Shown here piece by piece: positions 2,891 through 51,732 of a DNA stretch of 64,000 nt. The position numbers were made by a program, and so were the translations under genes. The stretch covers positions 33,356,001 through 33,420,000 of the forward strand of contig OZ336883.1 of the NCBI GenBank assembly GCA_965287045.1, in the 5' to 3' direction. This DNA comes from Carcharhinus amblyrhynchos. Taxonomy: Eukaryota. The notes under the pieces were generated by a model. It was given only the letters and a program-made list of their open reading frames with translations, was not told the DNA's origin and did no database searches. Every line of letters begins with the position of its first letter. Position 1 is the stretch's first letter.

Positions 2891-3000
2891 AGGTGATTAA
2901 CCAATGAATCAATTTTTAGTGGCAATTTAGACAAAGGAAATTGGCAGGAGACTTCCTTCTTTTTTCCAATCATATCGTGAGACCTTTAATGTCTTTAATT

Positions 3001-3098
3001 AAGCACAGTAGGAAGTCTCACAATGCCAGGTTAAAGTCCAATGGCATTATTTGGAATCACGAGCTTTCGGAGCACTGCTCCTTCATCAGGTGAGTTTA
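3001..3098 (-). mobile_element. Penelope-like element terminal (pseudo-LTR) fragment
   Basis: cacagtaggaagtctcacaatgccaggttaaagtccaa is shared with 30508 and 50225; carries a hammerhead; flanked by aattaagca at 2997-3005 and 3099-3107. Confidence 0.7.
3057..3093 (-). ncRNA. Minimal type I hammerhead ribozyme
   Basis: Minus strand UCAC-CUGAUGA-A-GGAGC-AGU-GCUCC-GAAA-GC-UC-GUGA: intact core, perfect 5-bp stem II, 4-bp stem I, palindromic AGCU stem III. Confidence 0.8.
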
Positions 3099-3276
3099 AA
3101 TTAAGCAGAACAGGCAGACAGGAGCTGATTTTAAATCTCCTCTGATGGAGGTATCTAGAAAGATGACTACACCTTGAGGATTACATTGTAATGTCAGCCA
3201 AAATTATAAGGTTGTAACCTAATCACTTCTATGATCAATTTAATATAAAGCCAAGAGGGATTTACTGAAATTTTTT

Positions 3277-27210: not shown

Positions 27211-27418
27211 GCATAGAAACAAAATATTGCGGACGCTGGAATCTAAAACCAAGAAAGAAAATTCTGGAAAATCTCAGCAGATCTGGCAGCATCTGTAAGG
27301 AGGGAAAAGAGCTGATGTTTCGAGCCCAGATGATCCTTTGTCAAAGCTTTGTCAAAAAATCATCTGGACTTGAAGCATCAGCTCTTTTCTCTCCTTACAG
27401 ATGCTGTTAGACCTGCTG
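27211..27418. mobile_element. Palindromic Penelope-like element with inverted hammerhead-bearing arms
   Basis: Inverted repeat 27274-27419 centred on aaagcttt (27343-27350); aaacatttaca repeated at 27200-27210 and 27419-27429. Confidence 0.7.
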
Positions 27419-30507: not shown

Positions 30508-30836
30508 AGTAAGAAGTCTCACAACACCAGGTTAAAGTCCAACAGGTTTATTTGGTAGATTAAGCTTTTGGAGCGTTGCTCCTTCTTCAGGTGAGTGAGG
30601 AGTTCTGTTCACAAACAGGGCGAATAAAGACACAAAATCAATTTACAAGATAATGATTGGAATGTGAGTCTTTGCAGGTAATCAAGTCTTAAAGGTACAG
30701 ACAATGTGAGTGGAGAGAGGGTTACGCACAGATTAAAGAGATGTGTACTGTCTCCAGCCAGAACCATTAATGAGATTTTGCAAGTCGTGGGGCTTACAGA
30801 AAGTGTGACATGGACCCAAGACCCCGGGTGTACAAC
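30508..30836 (-). mobile_element. Penelope-like element terminal fragment with degenerate hammerhead
   Basis: Homologous to 50225-50430; minus strand cac-CUGAAGA-A-GGAGC-AAC-GCUCC-AAAA (G12 mutated) at about 30558-30594. Confidence 0.75.
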
Positions 30837-49825: not shown

Positions 49826-50191
49826 ATTTTGATTTGATTTATTGTCACATGTATTAGTATACAGTGAAAAGCATTGTTTCTTATGCGCTTTACAGACATG
49901 CATACCATTCATAGAGAAAGAAATGTAATGTTGCTGTCATAGCTAGGATGTAGAGAAAGATCAACTTAATGCAAGATAGGTCCATTCAAAAATCTGATGG
50001 CAGTAAGGAAGAAGTTATTCTTGAGTCGTTTGATACGTGACCTCAGACTTTTGTATCGCTTCCCGACAGAAGAAGGTGGAAGAGAGAATGTGCGGGATGC
50101 GTGGGGTTCTTAATTATGCTGGCTGCTTTGCCGAGGCAGTGGGAAGTGTAATCAGAGTCACTGGATGGGAGGCTGGTTTGTGTGATGGACA
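49826..50191 (-). mobile_element. Rex1/Babar-type LINE 3' end
   Basis: SITQTSLPSSDSDYTSHCLGKAASIIKNPTHPAHSLFHLLLSG; tail catgtgacaataaatcaaatc; same family as 19380-19672. Confidence 0.85.
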
Positions 50192-50430
50192 TGACGTGGA
50201 GATGCTGGTGTTGGACTGGGGTAAGCACAATAAGATGTCTCACAACACCAGGTTAAAGTCCAACAGGTTTATTTGGTAGCACAAGCCACAAGCTTTTGGA
50301 ATGCTGCTCCTTCATAAGGTGAGTGGGAGTTGTGTTCACAAACAGGACATATAAAGACACAAACTCAATTTAGAAGATAATGGTTGGAATGTGAGTCTTT
50401 ACAGGTAATCAAGACTTAAAGTATAGACAA
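50192..50430 (-). mobile_element. Penelope-like terminal fragment with degenerate hammerhead
   Basis: Homologous to 30508-30705; minus strand ucac-CUUAUGA-A-GGAGC-AGC-AUUCC-AAAA-GC-UU-gugg at about 50286-50322. Confidence 0.75.
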
Positions 50431-51700
50431 AGTCAATGGATGGGAGGCTGGTTTGTGTGATGGACACAGAGTCAATGGATGGGAGACTGGTTTATGTGAT
50501 GGACACAGAGTCAATGGATGGGAGGCTGGTTTGTGTGATGGACACAGAGTCAATGGATGGGAGGCTGGTTTGTGTGATGGACAGAGTCAATGGATGGGAG
50601 GCTGGTTTGTGTGATGGACACAGAGTCAGTGGATGGGAGGCTGGTTTGTGTGATGAACACAGAGTCAGTGGATGGGAGGCTGGTTTGTGTGATGGACACA
50701 GAGTCAATGGATGGGAGTCTGGTTTGTGTGATGGACACAGAGTCAGTGGATGGGAGGCTGGTTTGTGTGATGGACACAGAGTCAATGGATGGGAGTCTGG
50801 TTTGTGTGATGGACACAGAGTCAATGGATGGGAGGCTGGTTTGTGTGATGGACACAGAGTCAATGGATGGGAGACTGGTTTATGTGATGGACACAGAGTC
50901 AGTGGATGGGAGGCTGGTTTGTGTGATGGACACAGAGTCAGTGGATGGGAGGCTGGTTTATGTGATGGACACAGAGTCAGTGGATGGGAGGCTGGTTTGT
51001 GTGATGGACACAGAGTCAGTGGATGGGAGGCTGGTTTGTGTGATGGACACAGAGTCAGTGGATGGGAGGCTGGTTTGTGTGATGGACACAGAGTCAGTGG
51101 GTGGGAGGCTGGTTTGTGTGATGGACACAGAGTCAATGGATGGGAGGCTGGTTTGTGTGATGGACACAGAGTCAGTGGATGGGAGGCTGGTTTGTGTGAT
51201 GGACACAGAGTCAGTGGATGGGAGGCTGGTTTGTGTGATGGACACAGAGTCAGTGGATGGGAGGCTGGTTTGTGTGATGGACACAGAGTCAGTGGATGGG
51301 AGGCTGGTTTGTGTGATGGACACAGAGTCAGTGGATGGGAGGCTGGTTTGTGTGATGGACACAGAGTCAGTGGATGGGAGGCTGGTTTGTGTGATGGACA
51401 CAGAGTCAGTGGATGGGAGACTGGTTTGTGTGATGGACACAGAGTCAGTGGATGGGAGGCTGGTTTGTGTGATGGACACAGAGTCAGTGGATGGGAGGCT
51501 GGTTTGTGTGATGGACACAGAGTCAGTGGATGGGAGGCTGGTTTGTGTGATGGACACAGAGTCAGTGGATGGGAGGCTGGTTTGTGTGATGGACACAGAG
51601 TCAGTGGATGGGAGGCTGGTTTGTGTGATGGACACAGAGTCAGTGGATGGGAGGCTGGTTTGTGTGATGGACACAGAGTTAGTGAATGGGAGGCTGGTTT
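50431..51700. repeat. 39-bp minisatellite, about 32-33 copies
   Basis: Unit agtca(a/g)tggatgggaggctggtttgtgtgatggacacag; one unit near 50580 is 2 bp short. Confidence 0.98.
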
Positions 51701-51732
51701 GATACATCAGAATTCATCAAACCTGAAGCATT

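Follow-up and report, generated by a model that had tools for sequence, protein, structure and literature searches.

The hammerhead motif and the insert that carries it

The window (the whole stretch of DNA that was analysed, 64,000 nt) carries on its minus strand a short insert with a minimal hammerhead motif and two longer copies of the same repeat family. These features, with the basis of each assignment or the losses observed in parentheses, are:

2997..3005, plus strand: left copy of a 9-bp direct repeat, at the element's 3' end; likely a TSD overlapping tail letters (position; family repeat statistics)
3006..3056, minus strand: conserved stretch that follows the hammerhead on the 5' UTR side of the pLTR and runs to the short, tail-less end of the family (family alignment)
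3057..3093, minus strand: minimal type I hammerhead with a complete core and a predicted cut between 3061 and 3060 (descriptor and family covariation)
3090..3095, minus strand: ACTCAC, of which 3095 is the A where many family copies begin, the putative transcription start (+1) (family ends)
3096..3098, minus strand: filler of 3 nt that separates the repeat from the first family base, with no G directly before +1 (comparison with solo copies L267 and L279)
3099..3107, plus strand: right copy of the 9-bp direct repeat, at the element's 5' end (position)
30508..30827, minus strand: longer 5'-truncated family copy, 3' UTR plus hammerhead (G12 and the 3' strand of stem I lost)
50192..50440, minus strand: longer 5'-truncated family copy (G5 and G12 lost)

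Read from 3093 to 3057 on the minus strand, the motif is UCAC CUGAUGA A GGAGC AGU GCUCC GAAA GC UC GUGA, with C3 at 3089, G12 at 3068 and H17 at 3061. Stem I has 4 bp and stem II 5 bp, one additional A follows A9, and an AGCU palindrome replaces stem III. The core is complete (C3 U4 G5 A6 N7 G8 A9, G12 A13 A14, A15.1-U16.1 and H17), and two further min-HHR traits are present, type I closure by a short stem I and G10.1-C11.1 in stem II. An earlier sequence-only reading had reported a minus-strand hammerhead with full core, paired stems I and II, an extra A and AGCU, and this is borne out by the sequence and by a type I descriptor, whose single match in the window is 3057-3093, against a background of 0.04 loose and 0.01 palindromic hits per shuffle in 100 dinucleotide shuffles. 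The check with Rfam hammerhead models that the same reading had suggested failed to identify the motif, as no hammerhead family matched either in the whole window (E up to 5) or at 2990-3120 (E up to 10). Taken alone, the 37-mer has a weak folding z-score (-1.43), and the case for a hammerhead therefore lies in the core pattern, not in stability. The motif at 3057-3093 is a real one, of a known kind, at an ordinary locus.

The 9-mer AATTAAGCA occurs on the plus strand of the window solely at 2997 and 3099, with 93 bp between the copies. The insert had been described as a 100-bp sequence amounting to little more than the ribozyme, but about 50 of its 93 bp are a conserved downstream segment of the element, which differs from the family majority at 6 positions over 38 nt. 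Here AATAAA has become AATAAT by a clustered change that creates a small quasi-palindrome; at 3018-3048 this change lets the AATAAA region form a 7-bp inverted repeat with sequence downstream of it, the outcome expected of a template-switch mutation.

The flanking repeat noticed in the sequence-only reading is present at 2997 and 3099, but it is weaker evidence than nine independent letters because the left copy, 2997-3005, agrees with the tail of the element itself at 2 to 6 of its 9 letters (among 37 tail-bearing copies, TG is found in 36 and TGCTTA in 3). Direct repeats of 8-15 bp, most often 10, flank 27 of 78 tail-picked family insertions (12 of 90 loci having been dropped as duplicates, and long copies not being followed to their true end), versus 1 of 78 in a shifted control. 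Inverted two-arm insertions, 37 of the 78 in this tail-picked sample, account for 24 of these 27, and single-arm insertions have a repeat of 8 or more in just 3 of 41 cases. Among solo copies that begin at ACTCAC, repeats of 9-13 bp flank 5 of 19 that could be scored (three more were unscorable) versus 0 of 19 controls; two of these five, L267 and L279, carry a 3-nt filler like that of the window insert. Judged by position and by these family statistics, the 9-bp repeat is likely a TSD, fitting the 8-15 bp TSDs of the family.

No empty site was seen in contigs from 8 of 24 sequencing runs, none of which skips across the insert among the alignments listed. The insert is bridged in three other organisms: across the right junction in organism A, across both in B and across the left one in F. 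For C, D and E the right-junction overlaps (30, 30 and 23 letters) fall below the 31-letter rule and are uncounted; G provides no flank cover. The flank in organism F has accumulated 7 substitutions and 2 indels in about 110 nt, and its contig has a further 12 differing letters and 6 gap letters outside that flank and may be a mixed contig. Pfam searches of 232 open frames (96 in the window and 136 from 80 kb of neighbours) identified no host gene, the only matches being 3 weak hits below cut-off. A weak LIM-domain hit (L201:5666-5851, E 0.0075, below cut-off), possibly an exon, lies about 25 kb to the right of the window. In RNA sequencing runs, 0.06-0.08 of the query words were present.

The Penelope-like family and the state of its copies

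An exact 35-nt form of the motif occurs 599 times in the 2.92-Gb genome and a looser 34-nt form 1,715 times; a sequence of 38 nt from the downstream segment has 14,636 exact matches, and the reversed controls have 0. A first look with the 93-bp insert gave 2579 candidates genome-wide. Eleven family copies lie in the 144 kb around the finding, from which the size of the family is estimated, by extrapolation, at 200,000 fragments.

To judge from the sequences of its relatives, the hammerhead at 3057-3093 derives from the pLTR of a very abundant Penelope-like element with RT, Cys linker and GIY-YIG. Upstream tracking through longer copies leads to a GIY-YIG-type frame and then to RT. The decayed copy L076 has RVT_1 (E 9.8e-10) and GIY-YIG (E 8.2e-5) by Pfam on one strand, in two frames; L076, L077, L078 and L059 have C-X4-C-X2-C before GIY-YIG, in the linker that joins RT to EN; and L078 and L079 have two direct pLTRs, with a hammerhead in each, around an RT frame. 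The nearest relative of the insert that is tied to a coding remnant (L041, 90% over 83 nt of the insert) lies behind a GIY-YIG-type frame. Thus the Penelope-like origin proposed earlier is supported by recovery of parent elements with RT and GIY-YIG and same-strand hammerheads in their pLTRs. The pLTR repeat ends at the ATG of the ORF, and what follows the hammerhead is therefore the 5' UTR of the element; the hammerhead lies about 90 nt (short end) to 130 nt before this ATG. A CX2-5CxxC linker is the mark of the Neptune and Nematis clades (PMC8557442), of which we infer Neptune because Neptune and Poseidon are the vertebrate clades (bioRxiv 10.64898/2026.07.22.740005). A younger subfamily (L075-L078, L080, L081 and L084) has long open RT and EN frames and inverted arms that are 95-99.6% identical.

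Among 139 copies, chosen blind to the state of the hammerhead but retaining the hammerhead region, the core is intact in 69 and the motif is intact in every respect scored in 45, so that an intact copy such as that in the window is ordinary. G12 has become A in 31 of the 139; it sits in a CpG, which would explain the loss of G12 from both longer copies in the window. That loss had been noted in the sequence-only reading for 30558-30594 and 50286-50322 and is correct for both, but the further losses of the 3' strand of stem I in the former and of G5 in the latter had been overlooked. A 39-bp minisatellite (50427-51701, 32.7 copies, 97% matches) begins where the copy at 50192-50440 has its 5' end, and a further unit lies on the opposite side of this copy, near 50156. 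Elsewhere in the window a 104-bp fold-back (27295-27398) has a weak mir-3202 score (44.8 bits versus a gathering threshold of 90), but was rejected as a microRNA: by eye, its two arms resemble hammerhead-bearing ends of another repeat family, decayed and placed back to back.

The extra base after A9 is A in 136 of the 139 copies, and H17 is U, A or C in 138 and G in one. Between subfamilies, N7 and H17 vary freely and stem II changes on both sides. In 64 of the 139 copies that are of equal length, 20 cells changed on both sides versus 7.9 in shuffles (0 of 500 as high), with far lower values in slid controls, relatedness among the copies inflating these counts. Individual copies decay: among 44 copies selected on RT, EN or position, changes affect 20 of 440 non-CpG positions in the core and 114 of 1672 in the tail, and G12 (CpG) is changed in 11 of 44. 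The rates for C and G are 11% and 10% in the core versus 11% and 9% in the tail, and A/T positions are changed in 6 of 308 cases in the core versus 48 of 1012 in the tail, a figure that includes subfamily differences. The core thus decays about like its flank. Since the fold has been kept between subfamilies by compensatory changes while individual copies decay, selection acted on the active element, and after insertion there is no clear sign of it.

Against the family majority, the window copy has 1 difference in 33 hammerhead positions and 6 in 38 tail positions; only 4 of the 44 copies have as few hammerhead differences. These figures, like the lower rate of change at A/T positions in the core than in the tail, count against an intactness due to chance. 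This contrast between hammerhead and tail, together with the full core and an insertion old enough to be common to organisms A, B and F with a diverged flank in F, is what would be expected if the window copy had been kept intact because it cleaves a host transcript of the minus strand, with AGCU pairing it in trans to a second copy of the family. Such a host role is extremely unlikely: a single clustered event accounts for 4 of the 6 tail differences, the 45 sampled copies mentioned above are equally intact, the additional differences in the F contig may reflect a mixture, and the 232 open frames yielded no host gene. Nor is there an intact partner on the same strand in the 144 kb, where the other minus-strand copies are broken and the other fully intact copies are all on the opposite strand, the nearest about 10 kb away. 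About 10 kb to the left (L195:2859-2922) there is a back-to-back pair of a younger subfamily, with a different stem II and a fully intact plus arm.

The energetics of pairing also speak against a host role. The energy model disallows the AGCU stem III in a monomer, the AGCU duplex contributes just -2.5 kcal/mol, and the double-hammerhead dimer (-19.7 kcal/mol) compares poorly with two monomers (-21.4 kcal/mol) and with a stem-swapped dimer that lacks stem III (-33.0 kcal/mol), so that the active dimer is predicted not to be the favoured fold in trans. The window copy also lacks the promoter region, beginning downstream of the TATA-like box. Published min-HHRs show no activity as monomers and low activity as dimers even in tandem constructs (PMC4209133), and the activity of the anole element's hammerhead needed the element's protein (PMC11167929). 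Cleavage by the window copy may be possible in a test tube, but is unlikely to be of importance in situ. The suggestion that this copy is special or likely to act is not supported, given its 599 exact twins, the broken minus-strand copies nearby, the energetically unfavoured dimer and the low published activity.

Ends of family copies and the putative transcription start

Ends were mapped for 90 of the 14,636 tail matches, the first ones on contig C1, which represent 89 distinct contexts, or 82 after removal of 7 segmental duplicates. The 3' ends fall into two classes of equal size: 41 copies are tail-less and end near CTTAC, as does the window copy, and 41 have a 35-40 nt tail that runs to the ATG. 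By analogy, these classes would correspond to the two RT start sites described in PMC11167929. At L113, L152, L194 and similar two-arm loci, only one of the arms has the tail, the other reaching no further than the short end, as though the two strands of the cut had been primed from separate RT start sites.

The 5' ends, measured from C3, lie at least 30 nt upstream in 25 of the 82 copies, at -29 to -10 in 9, at -9 to -3 in 21, inside the motif in 17, at the cut site in 2 and beyond the cut site in 8. The 21 ends piled up in 7 nt depart from an even spread (p 7e-8), and are distributed over several bases of -9 to -3 rather than at one. A hotspot of 5' ends at the cleavage site was considered and rejected as the main class (2 of 82 versus 6.6 expected from an even spread), although a few percent of ends could arise there. 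There may be a second, smaller hotspot at the TATA-like box, where a few arms (at L139, L152, L154 and L175) end 35-40 nt before C3.

The ends bear on whether the short inserts form a non-autonomous mini-element of their own, similar to a SINE or a retrozyme, in which a unit of 90-130 nt copies itself. Shared ends, high copy number and TSDs would suit such an element, and animal retrozymes have been described as PLE-derived (bioRxiv 10.64898/2026.07.22.740005), but the 5' ends are graded from inside the hammerhead up to the RT, the stubs are without the TATA region, and they carry each subfamily's own stem II and downstream letters instead of forming one lineage. The preprint moreover defines retrozymes as tandem, and the window copy is single. 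A self-copying mini-element is accordingly judged very unlikely, and the short inserts are treated below as stubs of the Penelope-like element.

Among 96 long copies, TATAW is found 28-32 nt before the A of ACTCAC in 58, and BBCABW, the Inr consensus, is matched at +1 in 79. This arrangement of TATA-like box and Inr-like hexamer at the usual spacing from the A recurs in four subfamilies, and a putative TATA box and Inr-like sequence have also been noted in the Adineta pLTR (PMC3846280). From these signals and the pile-up of ends we infer that the A of ACTCAC is the transcription start of the element. The base that precedes ACTCAC plus the following 15 nt is C, the family base, in 5696 genomic matches, G in 942, T in 345 and A in 260; at the one control position compared, which lies upstream, G is found 44 times and A 71 times (Fisher p 2e-18 against 942 G : 260 A). 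None of the first 30 G loci continues upstream, 19 of them being inverted junctions and 11 solo copies with no second arm near the junction, versus 4 of the first 30 A loci that do continue. An extra G marks the cap in full-length L1 insertions (PMC11702581), and the G excess here, as read from the genomic copies, looks like cap copying from uncleaved RNA. The window copy starts at the same A (3095) but has A, not G, before +1. In the literature searched, outside which most subscription papers fall, no report of cap-G ends for Penelope-like elements was found at the level of titles and abstracts.

The pile-up might instead owe nothing to transcription initiation: the RT might stall after stem I, or the quasi-palindrome around the start of the core might let two cDNA ends anneal, with microhomology as the source of the G. 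Six of the 21 piled-up ends are at -4, the edge of stem I; 3 of the 30 G loci could take their G from the inverted arm, the 19 inverted junctions being the class in which this could occur; TG is in excess (21 of 30 G loci by eye, p 0.004 against an estimated 0.44); and self-priming has been proposed for inverted junctions (PMC3846280). The 11 solo G loci are not accounted for in this way, nor are the promoter-like signals at their usual spacing in four subfamilies or the control position without a G excess, and we regard stalling or annealing as a possible but doubtful source of the pile-up compared with a fixed transcription start.

Origin of the insert and comparison with known systems

The 93-bp insert is very probably a promoter-less Penelope-like stub whose hammerhead is intact likely by chance and which has no role at this site. 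It may have arisen as follows. The element's endonuclease would nick an AT-rich site, and the RT would initiate inside the element RNA, at the short (tail-less) start site close to its 5' end, copy the uncleaved hammerhead over about 90 nt and stop on reaching the capped 5' end; the cDNA end would then be joined with 3 filler bases, giving the 9-bp duplication. Cleavage in the live element would be slow and would involve a dimer or assistance from protein, the hammerhead serving weakly or late; most inserted copies would originate from uncut RNA, the stubs being an aborted product.

For the family as a whole, the reading favoured here, with confidence slightly better than even, is that stubs are strong-stop cDNAs. 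The RT would start just before the ORF at the 5' end of the RNA and copy the uncut hammerhead to the m7G cap, the source of the extra G, after which the cDNA would be joined to the target, meet a second cDNA to give an inverted pair, or jump to the 3' pLTR to give a long copy. The start would then be pinned to a single base that precedes the ribozyme core by 6 nt and follows the TATA box by 30 nt, and the hammerhead would be mostly uncut in the templates. On the opposing side, 25 of 82 copies run far upstream and must come from the 3' pLTR.

The locus itself matters little, and the family statistics matter more. How the pLTR is rebuilt in Penelope-like elements, and what purpose the hammerhead serves, are posed as open questions by PMC2377424 and PMC8557442. 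A start at one fixed base, marked by an extra G, makes a precise prediction for the 5' ends of the element and for the PMC11167929 in vitro system, and suggests that this element of non-LTR type makes a first jump that is LTR-like.

The window motif resembles the min-HHRs described in the pLTRs of metazoan PLEs, including Xena, Poseidon and Neptune of fish (Cervera and De la Pena 2014, PMC4209133), in its type I topology, 4-bp stem I, unpaired nucleotide between A9 and 10.1, G10.1-C11.1, and palindromic 15.2-16.2 without loop 3; those motifs too are mostly single, in truncated copies, and form many subfamilies with compensatory changes. Its stem II of 5 bp is unlike that of the Schistosoma families in the same paper (7-8 bp). 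With animal (non-LTR) retrozymes (bioRxiv 10.64898/2026.07.22.740005) the insert shares a type I hammerhead, derivation from PLEs and non-coding character, but retrozymes are described as two or more tandem units with complete motifs, and the window insert is one unit, with no tandem array here.

The parent element, with RT, CX2-5CxxC linker and C-terminal GIY-YIG, is like the Neptune and Nematis EN+ PLEs (Craig et al. 2021, PMC8557442), for which 5' truncation, partial tandems, an inverted 5' copy and an optional tail of 30-40 bp are likewise described. Pen2a/Pen2 of Adineta vaga (PMC3846280) are similar in their inverted pLTR, tail, TSDs of 8-10 bp and putative TATA box with Inr-like sequence, the account given there favouring self-priming on an antisense template. 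A different arrangement is described for PAc, the Poseidon element of Anolis carolinensis (Frangieh et al. 2024, PMC11167929): its ORF starts inside the hammerhead and its RT starts inside the ORF, whereas here the ATG follows the tail end. The likeness to PAc lies in a hammerhead near the start of the ORF, in internal initiation at two RT start sites that bound the tail, in cutting of AT-rich targets, and in insertion from unprocessed RNA, which was the main template of PAc in vitro.
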